Below the pieces are notes generated by a model. It saw nothing but the letters and a program-made list of their open reading frames with translations, made no database searches and had not been told where the DNA came from. Below are positions 751 through 48,900 of a DNA stretch of 63,750 nt, piece by piece (the stretch's first letter is position 1; each line of letters begins with the position of its first letter). The position numbers and the translations under genes are program-made. Source of the stretch: a virus (taxonomy: Duplodnaviria > Caudoviricetes); the IMG/VR virus record IMGVR_UViG_3300044630_001179, positions 1-63,750 of that record; one strand, 5' to 3'.

Positions 751-1089
751 TTAAATATTTGAAACTCTTCTACCCATACCAACTCTTGACTTCTCAGCTT
801 TCTTAGCGGCAAGTTTAGAAGGACTTATTTCCGATTTTGTTTTTGGTGTCTTTGAAGACACTCGTGTTGTTGGTCTGCAATATTCATTGCTACCACCTGC
901 ACCACAGGCTTTACCACTTTTTGTATCCTGCCACTTTTCTTTCTCCCATCTTTTCAAACTACTACCTGCTTCAGTCTTTCTAACCACACCTGAACCCTTG
1001 CGACACTTAGCTATTGCTTGTGATGCACGAGCAGATGGGAACACATCATACGATGCTTTGACTTTTTTATAACAGGCATCCTTTGGCAT
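751..1089 (-). CDS. Basic hypothetical phage protein (LKRW.KEKW, YCRP motif; DUF5872-like)
   Basis: ORF track; Lys-rich. Confidence 0.6.
   Translation of the reverse strand: MPKDACYKKVKASYDVFPSARASQAIAKCRKGSGVVRKTEAGSSLKRWEKEKWQDTKSGKACGAGGSNEYCRPTTRVSSKTPKTKSEISPSKLAAKKAEKSRVGMGRRVSNI
846..861 (-). repeat. 16-bp palindrome GTGTCTTCAAAGACAC, copy 1 (inside CDS)
   Basis: Exact match on - strand; encodes VSSKT. Confidence 0.9.
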
Positions 1090-5267: not shown

Positions 5268-5594
5268 AATAATTGTTTTAAAACGAATGCGAAATATTTC
5301 AGGGTAAAGATAATTAATTTTTAGATACTCGTAGTGTTGGGGCTATATAGCGGTTTGACGCTGACTGCCCCGGACCGGAAACGACTTTTTTTTTGAGGGG
5401 TGGGGGGTCAATTCGGCTCACGCCTCACAGACTTTTTAGCTTTTTGCCCTGCCTTTGTATGCAGTGGATGGGTCACAGGTAGCGTGACCCGTCCCCTGCC
5501 GGCTGTTGCGTGCCGGCTGTTGCCGTCCCTCCTTGCATTACCCATCCATTGCCCCTGCTTTGCTTTGCTGTATTGAATTGTCAAGCCCTTTGCA

Positions 5595-5610
5595 GTGTCT
5601 TCAAAGACAC
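5595..5610 (+). repeat. 16-bp palindrome, copy 2 (intergenic, upstream of early promoter)
   Basis: Exact match. Confidence 0.9.
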
Positions 5611-5754
5611 AAAAAGAGAGAAAAGGCACAAAGAGAGATGCCTTAGCCCCTGCCTTGCCCTGTGTATGTCTAAACATTGTATGCCCTTTGTACATTACTA
5701 ACAGCCTGACAGCAAAGATTTTTAGCTTGAAATAAAAAAAAGATTGAAAATAAT

Positions 5755-5784
5755 TTTGCAGTATGAAGATTTATACTACATTTG
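5755..5784 (+). promoter_or_regulatory. Early promoter (Bacteroidota sigma70 type)
   Basis: TTTG (5755-5758)-N18-TACATTTG (5777-5784), with an A-rich upstream element, before the first + gene. Confidence 0.7.
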
Positions 5785-5814
5785 TGAAAGAATTAAACAA
5801 TTAATCAACTAAAA

Positions 5815-6465
5815 ATGTACAAAATGAACAATCTATTATCAATTGAAACAGCGTTTCTAAACCTGCCACAAGTGAAGCAGGCATTGAATTTAAGCGAAAT
5901 TCGAGCGGTTCAAAGAACCATCACAAACGCAAAGAAGAAAAAATTCGAGCAAACGCTCGCCCTGTCTAAGTTAGTGACACAGGCTGTTGCGTGGTTTCAG
6001 TCAGAGGATGGCAAACGTGCCTGCAATGATGAGGGCATCAGTTGGAGCAATGAGGAAATAGGCTTGAAGGTTTTCGGATGGCAAAAAAGTTTCTTCTACA
6101 AAGTAGTTAAGGCAGGCAAATTGGATGAGGCAATTGTTACCACGTTCAAAACAAAATGCGATGAGGCAGAAGCAAATGGGGACGAGCCCAACAGGTCATT
6201 GGAAGGCTTATTGAAATTCGCTAAGCAGGTGGAAACAGGAAACACAGGCGGTGGAAATGAGGAGCACGAAATGAGCGACCCTGAAACAACAGGTGAAGCA
6301 CAAATTGAAACAAGGGTTGAAACCATTTTAACGTTCACGTACAAAAATGAAGCAGGCAATGTTTCAGTGCGTATTGATGCAAATGGCGTGGTGAAGACTA
6401 CCAACACAGACGAGCAAATTCGTGAGGCTATTGCAGTATTAAATTTCAGTTTACAAAACAGATAA
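5815..6465 (+). CDS. Early hypothetical protein, possibly HTH-containing
   Basis: ORF track; first gene after early promoter. Confidence 0.7.
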   Translation: MYKMNNLLSIETAFLNLPQVKQALNLSEIRAVQRTITNAKKKKFEQTLALSKLVTQAVAWFQSEDGKRACNDEGISWSNEEIGLKVFGWQKSFFYKVVKAGKLDEAIVTTFKTKCDEAEANGDEPNRSLEGLLKFAKQVETGNTGGGNEEHEMSDPETTGEAQIETRVETILTFTYKNEAGNVSVRIDANGVVKTTNTDEQIREAIAVLNFSLQNR

Positions 6466-6490
6466 TTATCAACCATAAAAATCTACTACA

Positions 6491-7357
6491 ATGCAAACAG
6501 GTATCATTTACACAACCACAGGTCAAAGAGACAGAGGCGAGGTTTCAAATTACCACAGGAAGCCGGAGCCCCTATTTTTAAACAAAACTAAGCACGCTGT
6601 TGACGTGGCAGGCTTAAAGAAGGCAGAGCAAAGAACTGCCATCAAATTTGAGGGCGGAGATTATGAGGCGAAATTTACCATCGGTTTTGAGGTTGAGAAA
6701 AACCAATTGTCACGTAACGCAGTGCGTGAGTATGAGCTTTTTTGTGGCTTCGAGCGTGACGGGTCGTGCGGTTATGAGGCAGTCACTCACGTGCTCCCAT
6801 TACTTCCGGCAGGCAAATGGCGTACAAAGGTTTTTGACCTTATGCACAAAGCCGAAAAAATCATTGATGACAGATACAGCCCGTCTGACAGACGTTGTGG
6901 CGGTCACATTACCATTGCTGCCGATGGCTTCACAGGTGAGGAATTAAGGGCTGCCGTTCGCAAAAATGCAGGCATCATTTACGCCCTATTTCGCAACAGG
7001 CTTGAAAACAGATATTGCAATGCAAACAACAGGATGCAGAATATATCCGGTGACAGGTATCAGGTGAGCCTTGCAAAAGGCAAATGCTTAGAGTTTCGCT
7101 TGCCATCACGTTTTGAGTCTGTTAAGCAAATGATGAGAAGATACGAGTTATTTTATGAGATGGTTAATTTCAGCGTAAGCAAGCCGAACGGGTCACACGA
7201 GGCGTTTTTAAAGAGCATTACGCCCATCGTCTTATCAATGTACAATGGTGACACAGACAAAGCAAATGAGGTTCTGAGACTTGCAAAGCTATTCAGAGCG
7301 TACATCCTTGATGGCACAATACATCCTGACATTGCGAGATATTTAAGAGGATATTAG
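6491..7357 (+). CDS. Putative amidoligase (COOH-NH2 ligase type 2-like)
   Basis: FTIGFEVE, ERDGS.GYEAVT, CGGHITI, LEFRL motifs of the glutamine-synthetase-like amidoligase family. Confidence 0.7.
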   Translation: MQTGIIYTTTGQRDRGEVSNYHRKPEPLFLNKTKHAVDVAGLKKAEQRTAIKFEGGDYEAKFTIGFEVEKNQLSRNAVREYELFCGFERDGSCGYEAVTHVLPLLPAGKWRTKVFDLMHKAEKIIDDRYSPSDRRCGGHITIAADGFTGEELRAAVRKNAGIIYALFRNRLENRYCNANNRMQNISGDRYQVSLAKGKCLEFRLPSRFESVKQMMRRYELFYEMVNFSVSKPNGSHEAFLKSITPIVLSMYNGDTDKANEVLRLAKLFRAYILDGTIHPDIARYLRGY

Positions 7358-7370
7358 GATACAATGGGGG

Positions 7371-7386
7371 GTGTCTTCAAAGACAC
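7371..7386 (+). repeat. 16-bp palindrome, copy 3 (before HH1)
   Basis: Exact match; stem extendable by GGGG/TCCC. Confidence 0.9.
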
Positions 7387-7390
7387 TCCC

Positions 7391-7443
7391 TGCTGTCGCA
7401 GGGTGTTTGCCCTGCCTGACGAGTCCAACAGGACGAAACAGCA
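7391..7443 (+). ncRNA. Hammerhead ribozyme type III (HH1); predicted cleavage after C7397
   Basis: TGCTG-TC | GCAGGG-tgtttg-CCCTGC | CTGACGA | GTCC-aaca-GGAC | GAAA-CAGCA: all core nucleotides and three paired stems. Confidence 0.93.
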
Positions 7444-7464
7444 ACCACAAAAAAATCAAATCAA

Positions 7465-7575
7465 ATGGGAACACACATCACAATTTTAGAGGCAGTAATT
7501 ATCAGCCTGACATCCATCGTTTTATGGGTGTTTGTTAAAACTTTAATTCAACATTATAAACCATCAAAAAAGTAA
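7465..7575 (+). CDS. Small single-TM membrane peptide (36 aa)
   Basis: Translated by hand: MGTHITILEAVIISLTSIVLWVFVKTLIQHYKPSKK; preceded by AATCAAATCAA. Confidence 0.65.
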   Translation: MGTHITILEAVIISLTSIVLWVFVKTLIQHYKPSKK

Positions 7576-7578
7576 GTT

Positions 7579-8118
7579 ATGTACATCAAAACAGCCGAAA
7601 AAGTACGTGTAGAAAATTACCCGTATTCATTTACACTTCGCACTACATTGTTCGACACAATGGAGTTCAACCCTAAAAAAGGTTACAGACACGTGACCCA
7701 AACAATCAACCCAAAGACAGGGCGTGAGAACAACCCAAAGAAATCGACATACTATCCGCTCCTTGTTCGGTACAGAAACGAAGAGGGGCACATAAAAAGT
7801 ATGGCTTTTGACTTCAATGGGCGTGATGAGTTGAACAGGGGCGTTCAGTTTATAGCAGAGAACTTCGACCTATTCAGTGCCGATGAGGTTCAGTATTTGT
7901 ACTCAATCCTATTCACGATGACAGCCGTTGATATGAAGGCGACAGTGATATATGGAGGGGCGAAATTTGACGACCTTAAACCTATTTATGACCCGTTTAT
8001 CGACACTATCAAGCAGGGCTTGACAGGTGGGGGAAATGTACTGACAGGTTTGAGATTAGATGCGGAGGCAATAGAGAAGGCAAAGCCTGAGGGGTACAAT
8101 CCATTCAGAGTTAGGTAG
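7579..8118 (+). CDS. Early hypothetical protein (VENYPY.F.LRT...TQT.NPKTG..N.PKKSTY)
   Basis: ORF track. Confidence 0.75.
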   Translation: MYIKTAEKVRVENYPYSFTLRTTLFDTMEFNPKKGYRHVTQTINPKTGRENNPKKSTYYPLLVRYRNEEGHIKSMAFDFNGRDELNRGVQFIAENFDLFSADEVQYLYSILFTMTAVDMKATVIYGGAKFDDLKPIYDPFIDTIKQGLTGGGNVLTGLRLDAEAIEKAKPEGYNPFRVR

Positions 8119-8127
8119 CAAGTGGGG

Positions 8128-8143
8128 GTGTCTTCAAAGACAC
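8128..8143 (+). repeat. 16-bp palindrome, copy 4 (abuts HH2)
   Basis: Exact match. Confidence 0.9.
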
Positions 8144-8195
8144 TCCGTCCCTGAGTGAGTTGCTCAGGCTGATGAGTCCCAAAGGACGAAACGGA
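8144..8195 (+). ncRNA. Hammerhead ribozyme type III (HH2); predicted cleavage after C8149
   Basis: TCCG-TC | CCTGAG-tgagttg-CTCAGG | CTGATGA | GTCC-caaa-GGAC | GAAA-CGGA. Confidence 0.93.
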
Positions 8196-8216
8196 AACCA
8201 CTTAAATTAAATTCAA

Positions 8217-8411
8217 ATGACACAAGAACAAATGACCATCGAAAGACAGCGTAATGAAACCATTCAGGACGTAATCGACAGACTACTTTACCTGCCGGCA
8301 GACAAGTTGGAAGAGTACAAGTACTACCTCAATGTATTAGTGGACGTGTATCCCATTGATATGAAAATTGAGGACGGAATCAGAATCTATCACGTATCAA
8401 AAAGAAAGTAA
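8217..8411 (+). CDS. Hypothetical protein
   Basis: ORF track; directly downstream of HH2. Confidence 0.65.
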   Translation: MTQEQMTIERQRNETIQDVIDRLLYLPADKLEEYKYYLNVLVDVYPIDMKIEDGIRIYHVSKRK

Positions 8412-8412
8412 A

Positions 8413-8538
8413 ATGAAAATCTTATCAGTAATCTTAATCGTATCGTTCCTAACTTCTTGCAGTGTTGAGTACAAAATTGCTCACTACAAAAGACCAAACA
8501 GAAAACAGACCTGCATCGTTGGGAAGAGACCATTCTAA
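8413..8538 (+). CDS. Small lipoprotein (41 aa, lipobox LTSC)
   Basis: Translated by hand: MKILSVILIVSFLTSCSVEYKIAHYKRPNRKQTCIVGKRPF. Confidence 0.6.
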   Translation: MKILSVILIVSFLTSCSVEYKIAHYKRPNRKQTCIVGKRPF

Positions 8539-8550
8539 AATCAAATCAAT

Positions 8551-8712
8551 ATGGAAAGTCAACACTATTTCAAAGTATTCTACGGACAAGTATGCGTATG
8601 GTCAGTAGTCGCCCACACTAAGTGGGAGGCTATTGACAAGGCGTACTACAAATTCATTGGGGATAGACCCCATTTAGATAGGGCAAAGTTCAAGGCAAAG
8701 AAGGTTTATTAG
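8551..8712 (+). CDS. Small hypothetical protein (53 aa)
   Basis: Translated by hand, MESQHYFKVFY...; AATCAAATCAA leader. Confidence 0.6.
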   Translation: MESQHYFKVFYGQVCVWSVVAHTKWEAIDKAYYKFIGDRPHLDRAKFKAKKVY

Positions 8713-8720
8713 AAAATAAA

Positions 8721-8752
8721 TTTGGAGATGTCTAATTTATGTCGTATCTTCG
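8721..8752 (+). promoter_or_regulatory. Putative promoter
   Basis: TTTG-N20-TATCTTCG (one mismatch to TAnnTTTG). Confidence 0.5.
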
Positions 8753-8780
8753 TTCAATATCAGTTCAATAACAGGGTTCT

Positions 8781-8796
8781 GTGTCTTCAAAGACAC
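8781..8796 (+). repeat. 16-bp palindrome, copy 5 (5' leader of GATase-GGCT)
   Basis: Exact match. Confidence 0.9.
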
Positions 8797-8816
8797 TGCC
8801 CACAAATCAAATCAGT

Positions 8817-9917
8817 ATGTGTGTAATCATTATCAAGCAGACAGGGAAGCACGTTCCTCAGGAGGTTGCAAAGACCTCAGCAAGAATCAATCCTCACGGG
8901 TTGGGAATTATTTGGCTCGACACGTTCGAGGTTACCTATCACAAATCGTCCGAATACGCAGTATTGGACACAAAGCGACCATTCATCGCTCATTTTAGAT
9001 ATGCTACCATTGGTGCTATCAACAAGGAGAATACGCATCCATTCAGATGCGGGAGTAACAAACAGGAGTGGCTTATGATGAACGGTACTATCAGAGCACT
9101 TGGCAATTTCAAGAAGAGTGATTCAAGAGTATTGGCAGAGAACTTGGGAGAGATACCACGTCATAAATGGAAGAAGGAATTGGAGCAGTATGAGTGCAGG
9201 TTCGTTACGATTAACACGCACAGCAGAACGTATCAGGTGTATAACAAAGACTTATGGATTCAGAAGGATGGCGTGTGGTACAGCAAGGACAATGTACTTG
9301 AAGATAATTTAGTTGCGGTGTATGGCACGTTGAAGAAGGGTTACAGCAATTACAACCATTACCTTACCGGCTCAAAGCACTTGGGTAAGGGTGAGACCAA
9401 AGATAAGTATCCGCTTGTCATTCAGGGTTTGCCATACTTGATTGAGAAGAAGGGAGTAGGGCACAATGTGGAGGTGGACGTGTTCAAGGTGAGCGGTGGA
9501 ATATTGGCACAGCTTGACAGGTTGGAAGGTCATCCTAATTGGTACAGACGTAAGCAGATTGAGATTCAGATGAAGGACAAGACACTTACCTGTTGGATAT
9601 ATTTTAATATCAGAGAGAACGAGAAGGGACACGAGTTGCATAAGACATACACTCAGTTGCCTAACAAAGTGAAGTGGTACGAGGAGGAGGATGAGATAGA
9701 GAGCGAGAGGGTATTTAGTAAGTATGCTGACAGGCAGTTGAGTTTGCTCGATATATTCGAGGATGATTGTGAAGATTGTGGTTTTGATATAGTAAATGAG
9801 AAGCCCATTTGTGTAGATTGTTTTCACGACTTGGAACACGATGGCTTTGCGAACTACCATTGTAGTGGTTGCGATGGTTGGTTTGCTGAGGATGAGGTAC
9901 TGCGATTTAAACCTTAA
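8817..9917 (+). CDS. Class II (Ntn) glutamine amidotransferase fused to gamma-glutamylcyclotransferase (GGCT/AIG2-like) and a C-terminal Zn-ribbon
   Basis: Start MCVII gives the N-terminal Cys; NPHG.G, HFRYAT.G, HPF, MNG; then VAVYGTLKKG and LDRLEG; CVDC...CSGC. Start moved from 8781 to 8817. Confidence 0.8.
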   Translation: MCVIIIKQTGKHVPQEVAKTSARINPHGLGIIWLDTFEVTYHKSSEYAVLDTKRPFIAHFRYATIGAINKENTHPFRCGSNKQEWLMMNGTIRALGNFKKSDSRVLAENLGEIPRHKWKKELEQYECRFVTINTHSRTYQVYNKDLWIQKDGVWYSKDNVLEDNLVAVYGTLKKGYSNYNHYLTGSKHLGKGETKDKYPLVIQGLPYLIEKKGVGHNVEVDVFKVSGGILAQLDRLEGHPNWYRRKQIEIQMKDKTLTCWIYFNIRENEKGHELHKTYTQLPNKVKWYEEEDEIESERVFSKYADRQLSLLDIFEDDCEDCGFDIVNEKPICVDCFHDLEHDGFANYHCSGCDGWFAEDEVLRFKP

Positions 9918-9932
9918 CCTCAGTAGTGGGTG

Positions 9933-9948
9933 GTGTCTTCAAAGACAC
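9933..9948 (+). repeat. 16-bp palindrome, copy 6 (before HH3)
   Basis: Exact match. Confidence 0.9.
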
Positions 9949-9953
9949 TGCCC

Positions 9954-10004
9954 TCCGTCCCGGGATGTGCGTCCCGGCTGATGAGCTCGAAAGAGCGAAA
10001 CGGA
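9954..10004 (+). ncRNA. Hammerhead ribozyme type III (HH3); predicted cleavage after C9959
   Basis: TCCG-TC | CCGGGA-tgtgcg-TCCCGG | CTGATGA | GCTC-gaaa-GAGC | GAAA-CGGA. Confidence 0.93.
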
Positions 10005-10019
10005 AACCATCTAAACAAA

Positions 10020-10169
10020 ATGTCTATGAATTATTTTATCTTAGTCCTGAGTTGTTTTGTAAGTGCAATGGCAGGATGTTTTATCGGAGCGTATGTAACT
10101 TACAGGTCAATGAAAGTAATCGTGAGACGTAAGGTCGCACAAATTTTAAAAAATCAAAATCAAAAGTAA
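10020..10169 (+). CDS. Small single-TM membrane protein
   Basis: 3' part of ORF 9930-10169; ATG after HH3; hydrophobic YFILVLSCFVSAMAGCFIGAYV, basic tail. Confidence 0.6.
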   Translation: MSMNYFILVLSCFVSAMAGCFIGAYVTYRSMKVIVRRKVAQILKNQNQK

Positions 10170-10403
10170 ATGAAAAATCTAAACGTGTTTGAAATCGCAA
10201 CAAGTGGTTGGGAGGAAGAGAACTTCCGACTAATGACAAATCTTACTGAGAAGCAAATCAGAGATGTAATCAAGCCAATGGTTGACAAGGAGAGAGAAGA
10301 CGACATTGTGCTAAGCAATGATGATTATGTGCAGGCTTTACAGGACAAGTACAGGAATAAGATAGTAGTACTATTCGTTGACTTCGAGTTGTTAGAATTT
10401 TAA
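10170..10403 (+). CDS. Hypothetical protein
   Basis: ORF track. Confidence 0.65.
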   Translation: MKNLNVFEIATSGWEEENFRLMTNLTEKQIRDVIKPMVDKEREDDIVLSNDDYVQALQDKYRNKIVVLFVDFELLEF

Positions 10404-10406
10404 GTT

Positions 10407-10574
10407 ATGAGAAAATATTTTCAAATAACAAAGGGGTTGGTGTACTTCTTTGCTGAGTTGGTGTGGTTCTTTATTGTATCCATACCGTTGGCAATTTTGT
10501 TATTGACCATTGTTGAATCAGTATCATTAATCAAATCAATTATAATCAAATGTCAAAAAATCACTACGAGATGA
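10407..10574 (+). CDS. Small hydrophobic membrane protein (55 aa)
   Basis: Translated by hand: MRKYFQITKGLVYFFAELVWFFIVSIPLAILLLTIVES... Confidence 0.5.
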   Translation: MRKYFQITKGLVYFFAELVWFFIVSIPLAILLLTIVESVSLIKSIIIKCQKITTR

Positions 10575-10867
10575 GTGCGGTTGCCTCCGCAAATCTTGAA
10601 ATCGACTACCTACGAGGTCAGTTAAATGAGGCAAAGAAAAAACTAAAAGATATTGTAGAAGCACGATTGTTTCTAAGAAGCAAGGGGTACTTTGTTGAGA
10701 ATCTTTGGACTACAGATGACGTTACAGAGAACTACAATTGTACACAGGAACAGGCACAGCAGGTTCTTGAAATGGCACTTACAAACACAGCAACCATCGA
10801 GCAAATATGGAACGCCATTGACGATGCGTGCGACTCATTAGAAATTCGTAAAAATCTAAATCAATAA
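10550..10867 (+). CDS. Hypothetical protein
   Basis: ORF track. Confidence 0.7.
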   Translation: MSKNHYEMSAVASANLEIDYLRGQLNEAKKKLKDIVEARLFLRSKGYFVENLWTTDDVTENYNCTQEQAQQVLEMALTNTATIEQIWNAIDDACDSLEIRKNLNQ

Positions 10868-10871
10868 TCAA

Positions 10872-11267
10872 ATGGAAATCAAAATCATTCAAGGAGTAAA
10901 GCGAGAAGTCTTAGAAGATGTTTTCGTAACAGCGTTAGAAGGCGGCAGTAACTATTGGTACTACTTACCTGAGGAATCAATTAAGGCAATACGCAAGGCA
11001 GTACCTAAGAGCGAAGACCCATACATTAGTACAGCAATCTTAAAGGCAATCTTAGACCACGATGTGAAGATAGCTATCAATGATGCAGAGAACGAGGATG
11101 AAGTTATCGGGGTTATTACACGTGGAACAATGCAGGCACGTCTTCAATTGCTATCAGATAGCAATGAGAGGTGGGCGTTGGAGGCACATATGCGTGAGGA
11201 AGGAGATGCCGGTTCAGCAGATGTAGTATTTCAATATCTAACTATGGGGGAGGTGGTTTATGGATAA
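10872..11267 (+). CDS. Phage hypothetical protein (TALEGGSNYW...DA..AD...Q....GEVVYG)
   Basis: ORF track; motif typical of phage early proteins. Confidence 0.75.
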   Translation: MEIKIIQGVKREVLEDVFVTALEGGSNYWYYLPEESIKAIRKAVPKSEDPYISTAILKAILDHDVKIAINDAENEDEVIGVITRGTMQARLQLLSDSNERWALEAHMREEGDAGSADVVFQYLTMGEVVYG

Positions 11268-11457
11268 GGAACAAACATTAATCGACAGACTAAGGATGTT
11301 GCAGGAGCAAGCGTCCTTATTAATTCAGGAGTTGGAAGCAAATCCAAACTTCCCTGAGGGTCATATCATCACGAAAGAGTCTTGGGACAATGCAGACAAA
11401 ATTATCCACGATGGTTTTGTTTACGTGAAATATACAGACCTATTGTTTTATAAATAA
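11260..11457 (+). CDS. Hypothetical protein
   Basis: ORF track; overlaps the upstream stop. Confidence 0.6.
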   Translation: MDKEQTLIDRLRMLQEQASLLIQELEANPNFPEGHIITKESWDNADKIIHDGFVYVKYTDLLFYK

Positions 11458-11472
11458 ATTGTACTATATTTG
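11443..11472 (+). promoter_or_regulatory. Putative promoter
   Basis: TTG-N19-TATATTTG. Confidence 0.6.
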
Positions 11473-11526
11473 TACGGAATTTAATCAAATCAACGGGAGC
11501 CTTGTGCTCCCATAAACTTTTATCAA

Positions 11527-11769
11527 ATGAAAAGCATCATCACATTAGAAGATTTTAGCAACACGGGAAGGTTCACAGGAAGAGTAGCATACCTCGATAA
11601 GAATCCGGAAGTAGAACTGCACGAAGACTGTACAGACGTGGTTCAGTACATTGGCGGTCATATCATTCAGGTATTGAAGTCAGGTCAATTTATGGTGGAC
11701 GAAGGGTTCAGAAGTATCTCATTAGACGAATCAGAGGGTTGGTTGTATGTAAAAAAAATTAACAAATAA
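11527..11769 (+). CDS. Hypothetical protein
   Basis: ORF track. Confidence 0.65.
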   Translation: MKSIITLEDFSNTGRFTGRVAYLDKNPEVELHEDCTDVVQYIGGHIIQVLKSGQFMVDEGFRSISLDESEGWLYVKKINK

Positions 11770-11794
11770 TTGAACGATGTATGAACATTTTCAC

Positions 11795-11802
11795 TATATT
11801 TG
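11795..11802 (+). promoter_or_regulatory. -7 promoter element for the recombination/replication operon
   Basis: TATATTTG 21 nt upstream of ATG 11824. Confidence 0.55.
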
Positions 11803-11823
11803 TTTTCAAATCAAATTGAAGTT

Positions 11824-12126
11824 ATGAAGCACGATGTTTTTAATCAGTATGTAGAAAGGGTGGCTGACTTGTTCAGCATTAGCAAGGAGGATATATTCTC
11901 CAAATCAAAGAAGAGAGAGTTGGTAGACGCACGTCACTTGGTATATTACTTATGTGCTAAGAGACCTATGCAAATCACATACATTCAAAAGTATATGAAC
12001 GAGGCAGGCTACGAAATCAAGCACTCATCTATCATCCACGGAATCACTGCGGTTGAGCAGAAGATAGCGGAAGACAAGGACTACGTATCCATTGTCAAGG
12101 ATGTAGAGAGAGCAGTTTTTATTTAA
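11824..12126 (+). CDS. Stand-alone DnaA C-terminal-like HTH DNA-binding protein
   Basis: VADLFSISKEDI.SKSKKRELVDARHL.YYL...HSSIIHG...VE matches the DnaA domain IV pattern. Confidence 0.75.
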   Translation: MKHDVFNQYVERVADLFSISKEDIFSKSKKRELVDARHLVYYLCAKRPMQITYIQKYMNEAGYEIKHSSIIHGITAVEQKIAEDKDYVSIVKDVERAVFI

Positions 12127-12160
12127 TCAAATCAATCAGTTAATAATCAAATCAAATCAA

Positions 12161-12805: not shown

Positions 12806-12807
12806 CA

Positions 12808-13548: not shown

Positions 13549-13644
13549 AAAATTATGGCGTGTAACGTATATTGGGAATCTAAATAAGGTGAACGTTGTC
13601 CTTTCATCCACGCCATAAACTTATTTTTGCTCCCCCCGAAGCAA

Positions 13645-13660
13645 GTGTCTTCAAAGACAC
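13645..13660 (+). repeat. 16-bp palindrome, copy 7 (before the tRNA-like RNA)
   Basis: Exact match. Confidence 0.9.
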
Positions 13661-13663
13661 AAA

Positions 13664-13755: not shown

Positions 13756-13828
13756 CTAATCATTAGCTTAGCCTCAGAGGTTAATGGTTGGTATAAATAG
13801 ACTGAGGCAACAAATAAATTTTAGACCA

Positions 13829-14143: not shown

Positions 14144-14172
14144 AATTGACACCCATTTAGAGAACAAAAATT

Positions 14173-18118: not shown

Positions 18119-19572
18119 TTGAAAGACTACCGGCATACAGCAACAAATCAATGTGGGAATACTGCGAGATTCTAAAACGTGTAATCACTCAGTTTAAGGA
18201 AGTAAAGGTTGGTAGAGGCAAACAGGTAGAGGTAATCAAGGTTCCTAAATACAGTACTGAGAAGCACCTTGTAGACAATATTGTCAGCAGTTGTGAGTAC
18301 TATAAAAACTTATACGAGATGGAGGACAAGCAAGGATTTAATTACAGGGACTATCAGATTGACATTATTGAGAAAGGTCAGCAGATACTTTCAAAGTATG
18401 GGTTCCTGTATTTGGCAATGGAGGTACGTACCGGCAAGACCCTAACAAGTCTCGGGATAGCTGAGCGTGTGCACGCAAAGAATGTTTTGTTTGTTACCAA
18501 GAAGAAAGCCCTGAGCACCATATCAGACGACTACTCAATGCTTAGCCCTTCGTATTATATGCAGGTCATCAACTATGAAAGCCTCCACACCGTGATGAAT
18601 GAGCAAAGATGGGACTTAATTATTTGTGACGAGGCACACGGAATGGGAGCGTTCCCTAAGGCGAGTGGACGTGCAGAGTTGGTTGCACAAGTGATTAAGA
18701 AATGCAGACCAATGGTAATGCTACTTAGTGGTACACCAACGCCTGAGTCGTACTCACAGATGTACCATCAGGTATATGCAATACCTAACAACCCGTTCAA
18801 AGAGTTTAAAAACTTCTATAGGTTCTGCGACAAGTACGTTAAAATAAAACAGCGTAAGATTAACGGACTATTCGTTAATGATTATAGCGGTGGACTTGAT
18901 ACCATCCTCAAAGAGATGGAGCCTTATACTATTAACTACACGCAGCAGGAGGCAGGTTTTATGGCTGAGACCAAGGAAGAGATATTGGAGGTAGAGATGA
19001 AGCCATCGACTTATGCGATGATAAAAAAATTAAAGAAGGAATTGGTGATAGAAGGAAAAGAAGAAATAATTTTGGCAGACACTCCGGTTAAGTTGATGAT
19101 GAAGGTGCATCAGTTGAGTAGCGGCACGATTAAATTTGAGAGCGGCAATAGTATGATACTTGACCTAAGCAAGGCTGAGTTTATCAAAGAGCAGTTTGAA
19201 GGATGTAAGATTGGAATCTTCTACAAGTTCAAGGAAGAGTACAACGCACTCAAGCAGGTATTTGGTGATGACTTAACCTCTGAGCTAAGTGTCTTTGAAG
19301 ACACCAATAAGAACATAGCATTACAGATTGTAAGCGGACGTGAGGGAATCAGTTTAAGACAGGCTGAGTACTTAGTTTACTACAACATTGATTTTAGTGC
19401 TACGAGTTATTGGCAGAGCAAAGACCGGATGACCACAAAGGAACGCCTCGAGAATCAAGTATATTGGATTTTCTCTAAGGGTGGTATTGAACACGACATC
19501 TACAAGGCTGTCACAAAGAAGAAAGACTACACTGTTAACCATTTTAAAAAAGATTTTTATGACAACGACTGA
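18115..19572 (+). CDS. SF2 (SNF2-like) helicase
   Basis: RDYQ, RTGKT, DEAH, LSGTP, SGREGISL, QS.DR. Confidence 0.85.
   Translation: MIERLPAYSNKSMWEYCEILKRVITQFKEVKVGRGKQVEVIKVPKYSTEKHLVDNIVSSCEYYKNLYEMEDKQGFNYRDYQIDIIEKGQQILSKYGFLYLAMEVRTGKTLTSLGIAERVHAKNVLFVTKKKALSTISDDYSMLSPSYYMQVINYESLHTVMNEQRWDLIICDEAHGMGAFPKASGRAELVAQVIKKCRPMVMLLSGTPTPESYSQMYHQVYAIPNNPFKEFKNFYRFCDKYVKIKQRKINGLFVNDYSGGLDTILKEMEPYTINYTQQEAGFMAETKEEILEVEMKPSTYAMIKKLKKELVIEGKEEIILADTPVKLMMKVHQLSSGTIKFESGNSMILDLSKAEFIKEQFEGCKIGIFYKFKEEYNALKQVFGDDLTSELSVFEDTNKNIALQIVSGREGISLRQAEYLVYYNIDFSATSYWQSKDRMTTKERLENQVYWIFSKGGIEHDIYKAVTKKKDYTVNHFKKDFYDND
19289..19304 (-). repeat. 16-bp palindrome, copy 8 (inside helicase, antisense)
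   Basis: Exact match on - strand; encodes SVFEDT on +. Confidence 0.9.
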
Positions 19573-24500: not shown

Positions 24501-27500
24501 CTTCTGTTAACTCAGTTTCTTCAACCTGAGGAGCGATGTCCTCTTTATACTTACGCATTGTCTCGGCTTCCTTCTCGTCAATCTCTTTCTCATCAAGCAT
24601 TTTCTTGATTGAAGCTGCGTAATCTAACTCATCATCCTTAAATACCTTGTTCTCTGAGTTATTAAACCTATCTGCTAACTCATCAGCTTTTGATTGCTCG
24701 TTGTCAATCTCATTAAGTATGTCGTTTACATCCTTGGTAACTACTGACTTCTCTTCAAGATTAAGCACAGCTTGTCTTGCAGAGAACATATCAACCAATT
24801 CTAAATAACGGTCAAGGTATTGGTCAGGAATAAGTGTTGGGTTAATTGAGAATAATCTTTGTAACGGACCCACTAAACCATCTGCAATACCAATCTTTGT
24901 AACAATATTCTTTTTAGCGGCTCTTAACTTGCTTTTAGCAACGTCAATCTTATTGGCATATTCTGCGTTAGCAAATACCTTAGCCATATAATCAACAAAA
25001 CTTGACACTGAAACCTCGTTCAGCATATTTACTTTGCCAAATCGAGCAACAATGTTAGCAGCTTGAACGGCTGTAATCTTTCCGCCTGCTGCCATCTCAC
25101 GAATCTCTTTTGCTAACTCTTTAGCAGCATCTCTTGACAGGTCTCTGATTCTCTTGATGACAAGCATCTTTTCTGCTCTTGTGATATTGGTAATATCTTT
25201 TAAAGCACCAAGCACACGACCAATAGATACAGCACGCTTAGGTCCGATACCCATTTTTATCCTTGCTTCACGCTCCATTATCTTTTTCTGTAAGTCATTG
25301 GCGTTCTTATATACTTCTGAATTTCTGATAAAGGTATCTAAGTTAGATACAATCTTATCGTCAGCAATGCCTCTTCTTTTTTGACGAGCAATCAACTCAT
25401 CAGCCTTAACCATAAGTGCATCATATTCTTCCTGAATAGGAGCAATCTGAGTAACAGCATTGATACCATTAACAACATCACGGCTGCTTACGTTATTATC
25501 TTTAGCAACTCTTTTTATGGCTTCCTGTAATGCAACCCCTGTATCAACCAATGCTTTTACAGCTTTGATTATAACCTTCATTACAGGAAGTGCAATGTTT
25601 ACACCAAGATTTTCTCTCTCAAACTTCTCAATATCTTTTAATGCTTGCTCAAGAGCAGCAGATATTTTCTGTCCTGTGGTCTTATTATTAGGGTCTAATG
25701 CAAGCAATTCATCAAGTGTTCCTTCAACATCTTCTGTAACTTCCTCAACTGTTGGCTCAGCCTTTGCTTTTGCTTTAGCTTTTTTAGCTTCAGATTTAGC
25801 TTTATCTTTTGCTTTTTTCTTAGCAGCCTTGTCAAACTCTTTCTTTTGGATTTTGTTGTAGCTATCAGCGATTGCTTTTTTAGCATCACCCAATGTTTCA
25901 TAACCATCCAAGTTAAGTTCATTACCATCAGCATCTTCTGCTGTAAAGTAAAATATCTTATCCTCGTCAGTTATCTTAGTGATGGTTCCTAATGGTTCTT
26001 CATCCGTGTTTGTAGCCTCTACGGTTACAGATGACAAATAGGTACTCATTCTTCCACTATCTGTTTCTCTTTCATCTTCTTCGTAGAATAAAGCATTTTC
26101 TCTATTAAATGCAGGAGTCTTAACGTCAGATGCTGTAATAGGTTCAAACGCCTCTTCTTCTACAACATCGGGAGCCACTTCGGCAACCGTCTCTGCTTCA
26201 ATACCTAAGTATGCTTCAGGACTTACGCCTTGGAACTCTGCGTCCCTTGCGATGGCTTGGTCGATTTCCCGATAAATACCTTGCCCACTTTGTCCAACTT
26301 GGGACCCTTTGCTTTTAATTCTTCTAAGAACTTCTTGCCTTTTTCCCTTGTCGACATACCTTGATTCGACAGGTCGATATTCTGATTGTTCATAACTTAT
26401 ATTATTTTCGTCTAATATTTCTGTAAATCTACCGATTTTATCTTGAAGTTCAGCATCTGCAAAGTCTAATACGTCAATAAATGAAACTGTGTTTTTACTT
26501 TCATTAACGCTAAAATTTGATATGCCTGCTTCTTTCAAAGCCTTCATTGCACCATTAATATCACTTACTTGTACTTGGTATTCGTTGGCGTTATGCGTGT
26601 CTGTACCTTCATCTGTGTACTGAGCAGCAATACTTGCTTCTTGAACTTCAGGAGAAATAGTTGCAGCTAACGCAGCAAACTCTTCAGCTTGGTCAATGGT
26701 AGCTCCTTCTAATGTAACTAAGTTTGATATTTCAACAAAGTCTTCTCCTGCATCATTTTTGTAACCACCAATTACGTCATCAATAACCGCATTAGGGATG
26801 CCAAGTTGTGTAGCAAGGTCAGAAAGTTTTTGCTTGTATGCCTTGTAATTATCATTTTGTCTTAATGCCTCTGCTTCTTCTACCGTTTCAATCTTAGTAT
26901 TAAAATAAGGAGCAATGTTTACTTGTGTCTTTGAAGACACTACTTCTTCCGTGCCCTCAGGAGTGATGGTTTCTTCGGTCCCTGCGGTAACGACTTCAGG
27001 TTGGACGTTTCCTTCGCCCACTTGCTGCAATCCCATTTCGGGTTGTTCTGTGCGTAGCACGCTTTCATCTGTTGCTTGTTCTTGAATGGCATCTTGTTCT
27101 GATTTTATAGTTTCTGTCACAGCTTCTTCTTGTAGCTGATTCTCTTGAATATTTTTAATCTGCCCTCTGATAGCGGCAGCTTTATCTTTTCCTGTCTGAG
27201 TGGTATTGCCTTCTAACTTCTTTAAATCTTTTTCTAACTCAGTAATAGCATTAAGGCTTGGCTCGTTAAGCTCAGGGTTACCTTGTCTTACTTGCTCCTT
27301 AATTGATGCGGTAACAATCTTATCTTGTATTTTAAACTCACGACCTTCGTAGTCGTTCTTAATTTCAATCTTAGTTTTTGCCAAGTCAGTAGGACTCATT
27401 GTATTGATTATCTCATCAACTTGCTCCGCAGAAACTTTCTCTCCATTTACTTTGTAAGATGGTTTAGCAAGTCTCGCTTGAATAGTAGAACGAATACCAC

Positions 27501-41586: not shown

Positions 41587-41620
41587 AAAAAAAGGAGAGT
41601 GTCTTTGAAGACACCCTCCC
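41587..41620 (-). terminator. MCP terminator whose stem is built around the 16-bp palindrome
   Basis: On - strand GGGAGG-GTGTCTTCAAAGACAC-TCTCC followed by a T7 run. Confidence 0.75.
41599..41614 (-). repeat. 16-bp palindrome, copy 10 (MCP terminator)
   Basis: Exact match. Confidence 0.9.
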
Positions 41621-46654: not shown

Positions 46655-48900
46655 CTAATCAATTGACTTGTTGTTCCTTCGTTTTTATATTTAGCGAAGT
46701 TAATAATTAATTTCGATTCTTTTTTCTCCGGTATGTATAGATGCTTCTGATTAGCCATAATGCATAATCCCGAACTAATGGAGGCATCGAACCTTGTTCT
46801 GTCATTAATGTCAAACTTAGCCCAATCCTCAAGCGTTCTTGTAAATGGCATTGTGCCCATTTCTTCAGGGTCTCTATACTTTGCTTCCAAGTCTAATCCA
46901 ACATACTTCTCAATATAAGATTCAATAGCGGAGGCGTGTGCTTGCTTAACATCTTCTGATGAGTTTGGAATACCTCCTAACTCACGCTCAGTCTTTGTTA
47001 ATTTAGCCAACTGCTTATCCGGTCTATTAATAGAAAATCCTCTGTATCCTCTATTTTTAATATGGTATAAAAGCCTTGGTTTATTATTCTCCACTAAGAT
47101 AGGCATTCCGTAGAATATACAAGCCATTAGTACTTCTTCAAAGAATATTTCTGCCGTTTGTGGACGAGCAATGTACTCTAAAAAAAATTGATTGGTTGGT
47201 GCGTCATCCATATGAAACTTAGTCATACCGTGAAGTGCACCATTAGAACCACGTCCACCTACTACAGCAGAGATGTCATAAGAGTCACAACCAAATGAAC
47301 CAAGATGCTCATTACCCGGATACTTGATTCCGTTGCGTATGTGCACATTATTTTGCATATGCTTAGGAGGTGCCCAACTTATTAGGAACCTACCTCGTGT
47401 ATCAGGAGTCCATATCACCTCGCTATCTTTAATACCATCCTTCCACGAAAATGCCCCACGAGTAAGGTATTGCCCCTTAATCATTGAGTCGTTATAATCA
47501 ATCTGCTGATATAGTTTAGTTAAATTGAATAAGGCTTGCTTGCTCTCGTCTCTAAAAGCGTGAGACTCTGTTCTTGGAAACTGACGATAAAATTCGTTTA
47601 GTGCGTCAGCATCACTATTTAAAGACTCAACCTCCGCTTCCCAATAGTCAATGGCTCCGTTTTTAATCCAATTACCATCCACACCCATAATAGGCTCCTC
47701 AGGTTTGCGAAACACAGGATGACCATATCTGTCAATGAATCCTTCCATATTCCACTCCATTGGAATAAATATGGCATATAAACCACTTTTAGTTTGCCCG
47801 TTGGCGTTACGTACTTTTACGTTTGAGTCCTCGTAAATATCTTTATAGTTCTGTCCCCCTTTGCTTAATGCATTGGACGTTGAACCCATCATACATTTAC
47901 CGATAATCTTACTACCCAAGCGAAGACAGGTTTTGGTTACACGCCAATTCTCTTTAATGTTTACAGGCTTGGTCCACTTGGCAGACTCATCGTGTGCCAA
48001 AAATAATAGCTTCTCTCCATCGTATGAGTTGTCCTCAGTATTTTTCCAATCTATTGATGTATCAAGTCCATCGACATCATTGTCGTCAGTCTCATACATA
48101 TTCTTCTTAGTAATCTTTGCTGCCGGAACCCTATACGCCAACTCAGTTTTTGGCTTGTCCATACCATCCATAATCGGTTTGAAAAAGAATGGTAGGCGGC
48201 TATTGATTGGTACAACCTTATCGGTGAACATCTTCTTAGCATCCGCACCTGTCTTAGATAAGATACCTATACGTGCGTCACGAGCGAGCGTACCTATGTT
48301 CACGCACTCTGATGATGACATAAACGAGAACCCTGAACGTCTAATTTTTAGGTATATCATACCAAATGACCTCGGGTCAGCACGACAGGCTTCCCAAAAT
48401 ATCCAATAGATTCTATTGGCTTCACGGAAGTCAGGGTATCCTATGTCAATACTTGACCATTGCAAGTACATATAATGAGAGCCGGTTATGTAAGTCTTTA
48501 CTCCATTGTTCATAAACCAACATCCTTGCTCACGGTAGTCAAACTCCTGCTCAATATAATCTACCCAACGGTCTTTAAATTCTTTTGGCTTTTCGTTCCA
48601 TTGAAATATGGATTGTATCTTGGCTAACTCACGTGGAAGGTCTTGACGTTCCCAATATTGTTCAGCCTTAGTGGAGTGTCTTTGAAGACACTTTTCAGGA
48701 GCAAGCGGAAGAGCAATAATTAATCCTTCTATCTCTACTATCTGTCCTATCTGTCCGGTCTTTGAAATTACAATAACATCGTATTGGTCGTTATACCCAT
48801 ACAGCCACGACCTCACCCTATTTTTGTTAGAGATAACGGCAGCCGGTATGTGATTATCGACTATACGGCATAGATTATTGTTTTGACCTTCTTTCTGCAA
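46651..48900 (-). CDS. terL: Terminase large subunit
   Basis: KIRRSGFS Walker A-like, HDESAKW Walker B, GST, GCDSYD nuclease motif, ENNK. Confidence 0.9.
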   Translation of the reverse strand: MQKEGQNNNLCRIVDNHIPAAVISNKNRVRSWLYGYNDQYDVIVISKTGQIGQIVEIEGLIIALPLAPEKCLQRHSTKAEQYWERQDLPRELAKIQSIFQWNEKPKEFKDRWVDYIEQEFDYREQGCWFMNNGVKTYITGSHYMYLQWSSIDIGYPDFREANRIYWIFWEACRADPRSFGMIYLKIRRSGFSFMSSSECVNIGTLARDARIGILSKTGADAKKMFTDKVVPINSRLPFFFKPIMDGMDKPKTELAYRVPAAKITKKNMYETDDNDVDGLDTSIDWKNTEDNSYDGEKLLFLAHDESAKWTKPVNIKENWRVTKTCLRLGSKIIGKCMMGSTSNALSKGGQNYKDIYEDSNVKVRNANGQTKSGLYAIFIPMEWNMEGFIDRYGHPVFRKPEEPIMGVDGNWIKNGAIDYWEAEVESLNSDADALNEFYRQFPRTESHAFRDESKQALFNLTKLYQQIDYNDSMIKGQYLTRGAFSWKDGIKDSEVIWTPDTRGRFLISWAPPKHMQNNVHIRNGIKYPGNEHLGSFGCDSYDISAVVGGRGSNGALHGMTKFHMDDAPTNQFFLEYIARPQTAEIFFEEVLMACIFYGMPILVENNKPRLLYHIKNRGYRGFSINRPDKQLAKLTKTERELGGIPNSSEDVKQAHASAIESYIEKYVGLDLEAKYRDPEEMGTMPFTRTLEDWAKFDINDRTRFDASISSGLCIMANQKHLYIPEKKESKLIINFAKYKNEGTTSQLIR
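48676..48691 (-). repeat. 16-bp palindrome, copy 11 (inside terL)
   Basis: Exact match; encodes KCLQRH (different reading frame). Confidence 0.9.

Follow-up and report, generated by a model that had tools for sequence, protein, structure and literature searches.

What self-cleaving ribozymes do in bacteria and phages is still largely elusive and, besides glmS, only mRNA processing has been suggested for them (2019 review, PMC6765202). Clustered hammerheads flanking prophage genes were described in 2011, and the available sections of that survey propose that long transcripts are cut by them to gene-length mRNAs and report in vitro cleavage for three tandem hammerhead sets (Perreault et al., PMC3088659). 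Processing of polycistronic RNA by phage hammerheads is therefore a proposal that dates from 2011. The same sections describe the HHphage ribozyme of the haloviruses HF1 and HF2, which lies in an early region too, with 13 nt between it and the start codon that follows, and for which a transcript 5' end was mapped within 3 nt of the cut site (PMC3088659).

The window, which is the whole stretch of 63,750 nt that was analysed, belongs to a 64-kb phage and carries three type III hammerheads on the + strand of its early operon (Table 1), the timing being deduced solely from gene content. As in the prophage clusters, several hammerheads on the same strand flank single genes or short blocks; the clusters belong to other phyla, and a 5' hairpin, a fixed distance to the start codon and a repeated hairpin core are not mentioned for them in the available sections of the survey (PMC3088659). 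HHphage differs in being a single copy with a variant, high-salt-dependent core in an archaeal virus, and no hairpin coupling is described for it in those sections. The three elements of the window are likely to be functional ribozymes in a stereotyped intercistronic module, which would uncouple neighbouring cistrons by predicted self-cleavage.

Table 1. Features of the three cassettes, their flanking genes and the other copies of the 16-nt palindrome (16-mer) in the window
Feature	Positions	Strand	Remarks
Upstream gene of cassette 1	6491..7357	+	288 aa; no Pfam or PHROG family; weak amidoligase-like lead
Hairpin 1	7366..7391	+	11-bp stem on 16-mer 7371-7386; adjoins stem III (fold of 87-nt construct)
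Hammerhead 1, type III	7391..7443	+	predicted cut 7397/7398; RF00008 44.7 bits; family model R1 76.2 bits
First ORF after cassette 1	7465..7575	+	36 aa, hydrophobic; ATG 21 nt past stem III
Upstream gene of cassette 2	7579..8118	+	179 aa; no family
Hairpin 2	8125..8146	+	on 16-mer 8128-8143; 3' extension 8144-8146 overlaps 5' strand of stem III
Hammerhead 2, type III	8144..8195	+	predicted cut 8149/8150; RF00008 45.1 bits; family model R1 71.3 bits
ORF after cassette 2	8217..8411	+	64 aa
Upstream gene of cassette 3	8817..9917	+	GATase-like and gamma-glutamyl cyclotransferase fusion; PF06094 7e-23; phrog_2520
Hairpin 3	9928..9953	+	on 16-mer 9933-9948; adjoins stem III; fold -39.6 kcal/mol, z -4.35
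Hammerhead 3, type III	9954..10004	+	predicted cut 9959/9960; RF00008 44.5 bits; family model R1 79.6 bits
ORF after cassette 3	10020..10169	+	49 aa, hydrophobic
16-mer copy	846..861	-	within DUF5872 gene, sense strand
16-mer copy	5595..5610	+	divergent intergenic region ahead of + operon
16-mer without ribozyme	8781..8796	+	21 nt before ATG of cyclotransferase gene; hairpin with internal loop
16-mer copy	13645..13660	+	immediately before tRNA-like element
16-mer copy	19289..19304	-	within SNF2-type helicase gene, antisense
16-mer copy	26925..26940	-	within gene of 2376 aa, sense strand
16-mer copy	41599..41614	-	13-bp hairpin then T7, terminator-like; z -5.84
16-mer copy	48676..48691	-	within N-terminal coding part of large terminase gene

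The last base of the GUC triplet lies at 7397, 8149 and 9959, the cores read CUGACGA, CUGAUGA and CUGAUGA, each followed by GAAA, and alignment to the RF00008 consensus finds the core C3 U4 G5 A6 N7 G8 A9 / G12 A13 A14 / A15.1-U16.1 / H17 complete in all three. Stem I has 6 bp (GCAGGG/CCCTGC, CCTGAG/CTCAGG and CCGGGA/TCCCGG), stem II 4 bp with G10.1-C11.1 (GTCC/GGAC in two copies and GCTC/GAGC in one) and stem III 5-6 bp, while loop I begins with UG and loop II has A as its final base. No mispair occurs next to the core (1.1-2.1, 10.1-11.1, 15.1-16.1), in agreement with the criteria given in the available sections of PMC3088659. The full-length RF00008 match (positions 1-54) and the folds identify stem III as the open helix, with stems I and II closed by loops, and each hammerhead folded alone has the canonical three-way junction as its minimum-energy fold. 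The preliminary description had placed three type III hammerheads here, with stems that differ in sequence and stay paired, and it is correct to the base by sequence reading, RF00008 and folds.

The comparison with the Rfam hammerhead model, which the same description had suggested as a check, matches all three elements with 44.5-45.1 bits (E 6e-8 to 1e-7 in a search of 3.4 kb and 1.2-1.8e-6 in a search of the whole window), but these scores are 3.4-4.0 bits below the curated gathering score of 48.5, which is a database inclusion threshold and not a structural feature. A scan of the window at that threshold therefore gives no match, and the elements surface only with E-value reporting. The shortfall is mainly explained by loop II, which has 4 nt against 8 in the model. 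No other Rfam family was found in the window at E<0.1, and the family model, used with filters off, detects no further ribozyme site there, since the three score 71-80 bits and the next match 10 bits.

The family model was built from relatives and finds 36 distinct hammerhead copies in 15 related phage genomes; to the covariation set (n=36) the window contributes 3 copies, and 14 related records contribute the other 33. Paired cells amount to 92.0% across the 36 copies, compared with 66.0% in shuffles and 34-44% with partners slid. Stem I is paired in 100% of cells with compensatory change at 6/6 pairs, and both-sided change is found at 13/16 pairs overall, so stem covariation, on whose loss the identification was to fall, is kept in relatives. 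Loop I (UGNGUG-like) and loop II (RAAA), between which a tertiary contact that gives fast cleavage may form, are conserved while stems vary, and the first position of loop I is U in 16/16 aligned copies. Nine of the 36 copies, none of them in the window, have U.U or A.A at positions 10.1/11.1, a type of change that was treated as a reason to reject in the available part of the 2011 survey (PMC3088659). The complete core, the topology and the covariation in 36 homologues strongly support that the three elements are real, selected hammerhead ribozymes.

Hammerheads are present in 10 of 12 near-complete relatives, with 1-4 copies each on one strand within about 5 kb; the overall range is 0 to 4 copies per genome and many relatives have a single copy. 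The phage itself is related to Flavobacterium phages. Among cultured relatives, RF00008 has no match in Cellulophaga phages phi38:1, phi13:2 and Calle_3 or in Tenacibaculum phage Gundel_1. In the cultured relative Elemovirus elemoA, a single hammerhead lies in the 5' leader of an operon's first gene and is not intercistronic, so operon cutting is not the sole role, and this phage has no repeated palindrome.

The layout common to the family runs from a stop codon to a hairpin, the ribozyme, an A-rich leader of about 21 nt and an ATG. The stops at 7357, 8118 and 9917 precede the 16-mers by 14, 10 and 16 nt, and the next ATGs after the hammerheads are at 7465, 8217 and 10020, so all distances given in the preliminary description are seen. 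In the family, the median distance is 40 nt from stop to cut site (36/36 measured) and 21 nt from the end of stem III to the ATG (35/36 copies). All 36 ribozymes are preceded by a hairpin of at least 6 bp that ends at most 8 nt before the cut site (median dG -18.4 kcal/mol), and since hairpins unrelated to the 16-mer serve six of them, the conserved cassette feature is a hairpin in general and not the specific palindrome. The earlier claim of a fixed palindrome-coupled cassette thus stands for the layout, which is real and conserved in the family, but not for the 16-mer, which is not cassette-specific and occurs without a ribozyme at 8 of its 11 sites. Outside the family, coupling was defined by a hairpin dG <= -12 and a tail <= 8, and is found for 28/44 hammerheads of other viral contigs without the 16-mer, 22/23 with the 16-mer and 35/1500 random windows (2.3%). 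No T run follows hairpins 1-3 and the + strand terminator scan is empty at these sites. Literature searches, which covered neither subscription journals nor supplementary figures, found nothing on hairpin-coupled phage hammerheads; hairpin coupling and the 16-nt element appear undescribed, while the idea of processing by clustered hammerheads is already known.

Cassettes 1 and 3 fold with the hairpin directly against a canonical hammerhead, with a 0-nt linker, the 87-nt construct of hairpin 1 and hammerhead 1 reaching -40.8 kcal/mol (z -4.67). In the 83-nt construct of cassette 2, the minimum-energy fold retains the extended hairpin and stem III is lost; because this hairpin competes with stem III, the modelled fold suggests that cleavage of the second copy may be slow or conditional.

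The window contains 11 copies of the 16-mer, compared with 0.05 expected, and relatives have 10-22 per genome with invariant sequence. In copies linked to ribozymes, the stem is longer by a median of 4 pairs and the flanks covary, while the unextended copies of relatives lie 2-5 nt past a stop and 14-23 nt before an ATG. The intergenic early-region copies are all invariant and co-oriented with genes in 5/6 genomes, and genic copies are antisense in helicase and GroEL genes. The copy at 41599 (-) has the G+C-rich hairpin and U run of an intrinsic terminator, and the 16-mer is inverted at the corresponding site of record G003. With ARAGORN, neither a tRNA nor a tmRNA is detected in the window. 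The sister phage MW202828 has a compensatory variant, with a G-C pair and UUAA loop at all 14 copies instead of the U-A pair and UCAA loop found here, and all 14 are 15-40 nt upstream of early-gene ATGs. The 16-mer was not found in published papers, and in prokaryote genomes it occurs in at least 128 stretches, mostly as single copies and roughly as often as chance predicts. In that search, contigs with several copies come only from a Cytophagales bin (5 copies) and from a Flavobacteriaceae bin (2 copies) and are probably phage-derived, so they give a weak hint of the host. On these distributions the palindrome is a hairpin element in its own right, specific to the family, which serves in several contexts and is apparently reused as the core of the cassette hairpin. 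Its invariance, also inside genes, poses a puzzle of its own and points to some sequence-specific factor.

Homologues of the genes upstream of cassettes 1 and 3 precede 14/36 and 7/36 family hammerheads, respectively, while 29/35 downstream ORFs have no homologue in this genome. Atlas look-ups for the two genes ahead of cassette 1 gave no function beyond a 12% amidoligase lead, and blastn of 6400-10400 against INPHARED gave a single weak match, to the cyclotransferase gene. The motif TAnnTTTG, which we take to be the Bacteroidota-type -7 motif, is absent from + strand positions 5784 to 8717, so that a single transcript probably contains both ribozymes 1 and 2 internally; a sigma-70-type promoter scan was at chance level (19 found, 21.9 expected). 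The metatranscriptome runs X1 and X2 (shares 0.08 and 0.06) contain related sequence as Logan contigs of relatives, without starts, ends or strand, and so speak neither for nor against cleavage. One such contig bridges site 3, as a contig that carries no RNA-end information, and a relative's contig joins 9937 to 10016 with the ribozyme exactly skipped. Record G006 has, directly behind a 16-mer, the 5' strand of stem III and GUA, but the ribozyme body is absent.

During transcription of the + operon, the hairpin would fold first and the hammerhead would then fold against it, and the RNA would cut itself after C7397, C8149 and C9959. Hammerhead cleavage leaves 2',3'-cyclic phosphate and 5'-OH ends. 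The upstream mRNA, encoding a conserved core early gene, would end in a hairpin of the 11-bp class with a tail of at most 6 nt and a cyclic phosphate, presumably a poor substrate for 3' exonucleases, and the downstream mRNA, usually encoding small variable ORFs, would have the folded ribozyme body, bearing a 5'-OH, at its start and an unstructured leader after it. The module would then uncouple stability and translation of adjacent cistrons with no need for a host endonuclease. A further role of the hairpin may be to hold the short stem III (4-6 bp) together and to keep the ribozyme from misfolding with coding sequence.

It is possible, if not what we would expect, that the module serves accessory genes mainly as an expression insulator and a recombination cassette, a reading that overlaps with the one above. 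Each acquired small ORF would gain a defined 5' end and leader, as is obtained with the synthetic part RiboJ, and the repeats would promote ORF shuffling, as has been suggested for the promoter-stem-loop cassettes of T4-type phages. Conserved genes upstream with variable ORFs downstream, and the presence/absence polymorphism seen in the RNA contig that skips the ribozyme, the remnant in G006 and the variable copy number, are in its favour, but the two anchor positions are stable across genomes with proteins 48-88% identical, which is more like vertical inheritance. Excision of 7398-8149 and 8150-9959 by hammerhead pairs, followed by joining into circular or spliced RNA by a host RtcB-type ligase, is very improbable: three tandem ribozymes on one strand and ends that are established substrates of such ligases would allow it, but many relatives have a single copy, the joined form is not seen in relatives' RNA contigs (a weak test), and the 2011 survey, in its available sections, sought such products from clustered hammerheads and found none (PMC3088659). 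That the elements are inactive, as decaying relics or chance matches, is hardly credible in spite of scores under the gathering cut-off and nine family copies with a non-canonical 10.1/11.1 pair, given E ~1e-6 for each of three in a 64-kb genome, conserved positions and a stem I with compensatory change at every pair.

The 16-mer could instead be a phage-specific promoter, as an N4-like hairpin or an operator overlapping a promoter, with transcription starting just downstream of it and the hammerhead trimming from the primary transcript a few nt together with the 5'-triphosphate. Its invariance and gene orientation in early intergenic regions, the distances to ATGs of unextended copies and of all MW202828 variants, and the leader position of the Elemovirus hammerhead agree with this reading. 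It is nevertheless unlikely, because the extended stems and covarying flanks of ribozyme-linked copies mean that the 5' flank must belong to the same RNA, unrelated hairpins precede six of the 36 ribozymes, and the 16-mer also builds the terminator at 41599, inverted in G003, and lies inside genes, in part antisense. No Pfam or PHROG RNA polymerase match was found in the window, and the crAss-type DFDxD motif is absent from three giant proteins.

A wider interpretation, offered tentatively and with a modest chance of being right, is that the hairpin-hammerhead pair is a general, protein-independent punctuation of phage operons, in which the ribozyme makes the 3' end and the retained hairpin protects the upstream product, and that the clade 16-mer is a recognition element for a co-evolving phage factor or hijacked host factor. 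The 16-mer would then be a genome-wide RNA code with three reading contexts, written even into coding sequences. Since many unrelated phage hammerheads are coupled to a hairpin as well, the coupling may hold as a general rule, of use for better ribozyme annotation. As a natural design, the arrangement in this clade is unusually regular, with two anchors behind conserved genes, a retained hairpin, a fixed leader and alleles with and without the ribozyme, and this regularity makes it testable whether cleavage sets mRNA stability, translation or both. A bench system exists, because cultured Elemovirus relatives carry a hammerhead, one copy being present in Elemovirus grown on Flavobacterium sp. 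BAL314.

Among the known systems, the early operon of phage T7 is cut by RNase III at intercistronic hairpins and the upstream products end in a stabilising hairpin. The T7 sites need a host protein enzyme, whereas a cut by the RNA itself is proposed here, leaving a cyclic phosphate and a 5'-OH. RiboJ is an engineered hammerhead with a hairpin that standardises the mRNA 5' end ahead of a start codon; its hairpin is 3' of the ribozyme, while here it is 5' and would be retained on the upstream product. The three hairpin promoters of the N4 virion RNA polymerase have 3-nt loops and act as DNA hairpins. They share with the 16-mer the repetition of a short conserved hairpin ahead of early genes, but the 16-mer has 10-22 copies per genome, some of them genic or part of terminators, and the covariation of its flanks indicates an RNA hairpin. 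For the phi14:2 polymerase, the preprint gives neither a common early-promoter motif nor a palindrome. Self-cleaving ribozymes in the 5' UTRs of RNA viruses are likewise located ahead of a viral ORF and, according to the available part of their description, are needed for translation initiation, which cleavage promotes (PMC13725137). They differ from the hammerheads of this phage in that they are mostly type I, belong to RNA genomes and act in eukaryotic hosts in cap-independent translation (same part of PMC13725137).

The 63,750-bp window, a complete virus record that has direct terminal repeats, carries three type III hammerheads (Table), and a reading of the sequence of 7200-10200 bears out every detail that the preliminary description gave for their cassettes. 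Each hammerhead has a stem I of 6 bp, a stem II of 4 bp with G10.1-C11.1 and an open stem III of 5-6 bp. The 16-mer GTGTCTTCAAAGACAC, which is the core of the hairpin ahead of each ribozyme, starts 14, 10 and 16 nt past the stops 7357, 8118 and 9917 in cassettes 1, 2 and 3, and each cassette leads to a new ATG, at 7465, 8217 and 10020. An Rfam scan at default settings reports no match anywhere in the window. With E-value reporting, the model RF00008 (Hammerhead_3), proposed earlier as a check, matches all three at full length with 44.7, 45.1 and 44.5 bits (E 1.2-1.8e-6 for the whole window), though below its gathering score of 48.5, and no other Rfam family has a match in the window with E<0.1. 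Each hammerhead, folded alone, adopts the canonical junction at minimum energy. When the hairpin is included, cassettes 1 and 3 fold with an 11-bp hairpin that abuts stem III (z -4.7 and -4.4), and in cassette 2 an extension of the hairpin takes over nucleotides 1-3 of stem III, which is absent from the minimum-energy fold.

Hammerheads, hammerhead variants of relatives and copies of the 16-mer in the window
Feature	Position or locus	Strand	Remark
Hammerhead 1, type III	7391-7443	+	GUC, CUGAYGA, GAAA core; predicted cut after 7397
Hammerhead 2, type III	8144-8195	+	GUC, CUGAYGA, GAAA core; predicted cut after 8149
Hammerhead 3, type III	9954-10004	+	GUC, CUGAYGA, GAAA core; predicted cut after 9959
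Hammerhead of cultured Flavobacterium phage elemoA	NC_055852.1 19081-19143	-	
Hammerhead of cultured Flavobacterium phage elemoB	NC_062741.1 19024-19080	-	
U.U at 10.1/11.1	L172, L181, L183, L188, L191, L195, L199		GUA triplet
A.A at 10.1/11.1	L178, L187		GUU triplet
16-mers with ribozyme	cassettes 1-3		three copies
16-mer, terminator-like	41599	-	13-bp hairpin, then T7
16-mer ahead of cyclotransferase gene			21 nt before its ATG
16-mer in divergent region ahead of operon			one copy
16-mer ahead of tRNA-like element	13645-13660		
16-mer in DUF5872 gene			within coding sequence
16-mer in 2376-aa gene			within coding sequence
16-mer in large terminase			within coding sequence, N-terminal part
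16-mer in SNF2 helicase gene			within coding sequence, antisense

Exact matches to the 16-mer occur in more than 163 stretches of viral contigs, several with the same kind of hammerhead, and an alignment of 16 hammerhead copies was used to build the covariance model R1. Run with filters off, R1 finds only three sites in the window, with 71.3-79.6 bits, and the next match has 10 bits. The search of related phage contigs that had been proposed is positive, with 36 R1 sites spread over 14 of 24 related records; 10 of the 12 records at least 90% complete have one to four copies, always on a single strand and within ~5 kb. The 57 matches in 30 related loci and the window collapse to 36 distinct hammerheads, three from the window and 33 from relatives. 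Among these, 92.0% of cells are paired. Shuffles give 66.0%, with 0 of 500 as high as the real alignment, and sliding the partners gives 34-44%. The alignment is fitted to the model and biased towards the structure, but a MAFFT alignment made independently from 16 copies agrees, with 91.4% paired. The preliminary description had named loss of stem covariation in relatives as counting against the ribozymes. Covariation is instead retained: stem I pairs in every cell (100%), with both-sided changes at all six pairs, and 13 of 16 pairs overall change on both sides. Loops I and II are kept across copies while stem sequences vary, which agrees with a tertiary contact, short of proof. The 10.1/11.1 pair is non-canonical in nine of the 36 copies, as U.U in seven (all GUA) and A.A in two (both GUU), and in none of the window's three; these copies may be slow or conditional variants.

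The geometry of the cassette is also conserved. The upstream stop lies a median of 40 nt (range 13-120) before the cut site in the 36 copies, and the next ATG at the head of an ORF with 25 codons or more, found for 35 of them, lies a median of 21 nt (11-52) past the end of stem III. In folds of the 3'-terminal 46 nt of the predicted 5' products, all 36 form a hairpin of at least 6 bp that ends at most 8 nt ahead of the cut site (median dG -18.4 kcal/mol). The coupling of hairpin and ribozyme described for the window holds throughout, but the palindrome is not invariant: the core is the exact 16-mer in 24 copies and the 16-mer with up to two mismatches in 30, and unrelated G+C-rich hairpins stand in the other six.

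The gene before the ribozyme is a homologue of 6491-7357 in 14 of the 36 copies and of 8817-9917 in seven, and for 29 of 35 downstream ORFs the window's genome contains no homologue. Both genes that anchor the cassettes (+) are conserved; the first looks amidoligase-like from an Atlas lead (12% of cluster members), and the second looks like a GATase-like/gamma-glutamyl cyclotransferase fusion; the pairing of such genes is known from phages. Alleles of the cassette without a ribozyme exist as well. An RNA contig of one relative joins 9937 to 10016, and the related genome G006 (locus L343) has at 52718-52790 the 16-mer, the 5' strand of stem III and GUA followed directly by an A-rich leader, with the ribozyme body absent. 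The paralogous cassette beside it, at 52401, is intact, and the site looks like what a deleted hammerhead would leave behind.

Hairpin coupling extends beyond these relatives. A scan of viral contigs for the hammerhead core CUGAUGAG with stem II of 4 bp closed by an NAAA loop matches at least 132 stretches; the 80 loci analysed, some of which overlap with the family set, give 74 distinct sequences, 67 of which parse as type III. Among the matches listed, the 16-mer (up to two mismatches) is present in 23 of the 67, and a hairpin with dG of at most -12 kcal/mol that ends at most 8 nt before the cut is found in 22 of these 23 and in 28 of the 44 without it (median z against shuffles -3.3 in the latter), counts that speak for one hammerhead subtype alone because the core pattern picks that subtype. 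As a random control, 35 of 1,500 46-nt windows (2.3%) from eight related phage genomes pass the same criterion. Hairpins ahead of five hammerheads of other phages (L390, L413, L414, L430 and L431) keep GTGTC...GACAC arms with differing central bases, a sign that related hairpin cores may form a broader family.

The 16-mer is part of the cassette, as first described, but is not specific to it, with 11 copies in the window against 0.05 expected. Six genomes have 77 copies with at most one mismatch (10-22 each), of which 49 count as intergenic, 16 lie antisense within genes and 12 in the sense direction, a tally in which the terminase copies count as intergenic owing to a crude ORF caller. Coding copies, which translate as VSSKT, CLQRH or, antisense, VFEDT, occupy constant places in their genes between flanks that differ from one diverged genome to the next, so selection acts on the nucleotides. 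The large-terminase frame of the window (46651-48900, -), with its 16-mer inside, is open from the first ATG (48513) upstream to at least 48900. Extra flanking pairs have a median of four in ribozyme-linked 16-mers (16 copies) and number zero in most others. All 16 single-mismatch copies differ within the central six positions, and eight carry A11G, a change that leaves a G.U pair on the written strand alone; early-region intergenic copies are oriented as the genes in five of six genomes. Flanking pairs, central mismatches and orientation are evidence for a strand-specific hairpin. The 16-mer is probably a sequence-specific hairpin element, with a putative binding factor, and ribozyme cassettes and terminators would reuse it for their stems.

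The tRNA-like element just past one copy (13690-13752, +; RF00005 19.1 bits, E 0.13 on 261 nt) has acceptor and T arms and a truncated anticodon arm, with the promoter-type motif TAnnTTTG just upstream at 13622; ARAGORN calls no tRNA there. The divergent intergenic region 5267-5815 has ~48% G+C over 5261-5600, against 38.5% in the genome. Its sequence includes repeated GCCCCTGC(C)TTGC-like motifs, a single 16-mer and, at 5751 and 5777, two TAnnTTTG motifs, and the region is a possible origin and early promoter. The + block 5815-21576, with small ORFs followed by a Sak-type annealing protein, exonuclease, primase-helicase, DNA methyltransferase, SNF2 helicase and resolvase, is by fair inference an early or middle region. 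A 1616-aa protein matches the crAss muzzle family. At 2639-4517, 49632-50195 and 50639-52237 (all -), the phage also encodes GroEL and GroES and a block of cytidylyltransferase-like, APS-kinase-like and sulfotransferase genes; this block has no tblastn match (E<=1e-3) in the six related genomes compared.

The sister phage MW202828, whose terminase is 81% identical to that of the window, has no copy of the window's 16-mer and no hammerhead. MW202828.1 43745-55154 (L354, L355) contains instead 14 identical copies of GTGTCGTTAACGACAC, all 15-40 nt before early-gene ATGs. This 16-nt perfect palindrome has the outer arms of the window's 16-mer, with a G-C sixth pair in place of U-A and a single difference in the loop. 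At the terminator site ahead of the 40817-41560 homologue, MW202828 and G008 have ordinary hairpins, G000, G005 and G006 have the 16-mer, and G003 has it inverted. By terminase, the nearest named phages are Elemovirus of Flavobacterium (47%), then Cellulophaga and Tenacibaculum phages. In the Elemovirus phages elemoA (vB_FspP_elemoA, on Flavobacterium sp. BAL314) and elemoB, one type III hammerhead apiece is present and unannotated (R1 39.4 bits, RF00008 36.3 bits); that of elemoA lies in a divergent intergenic region, in the leader of gp62, the first gene of a leftward operon. None is found in the four Cellulophaga and Tenacibaculum phages examined.

The analysis shows the sequence features, the covariation, the conserved geometry and a frequency of adjacent hairpins far beyond what chance would give. 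It is unlikely that the three hammerheads are non-functional. In the proposed mechanism, the RNA would cut itself co-transcriptionally at the hammerheads, which would leave an upstream product with a hairpin cap and a cyclic-phosphate end and a downstream mRNA with a 5'-OH start and a defined leader, so that neighbouring cistrons would become uncoupled. A role as insulator or in recombination for accessory ORFs is compatible with this mechanism and would probably form part of it; that hammerhead pairs yield circular RNA is unlikely. The 16-mer could also be a promoter whose 5' leader is trimmed by the hammerhead, a reading that agrees with the unextended copies and with MW202828, but the covarying flanks, the six unrelated hairpins, the use in terminators and the copies inside genes make it improbable.

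Multiple hammerheads flank genes in prophages, where processing of long phage transcripts has been proposed, three tandem sets cleave, and a halovirus hammerhead lies 13 nt ahead of an early start codon, according to Perreault et al. 2011 (PMC3088659); the text of a 2019 review calls the function of bacterial ribozymes "largely elusive" (PMC6765202). In open-access text, no paper was found that describes a hairpin coupled to phage hammerheads, and none on the 16-mer. The window adds new members to a known class of ribozyme, in a type of context also known before; what appears to be new is the hairpin-ribozyme architecture and the 16-nt element.
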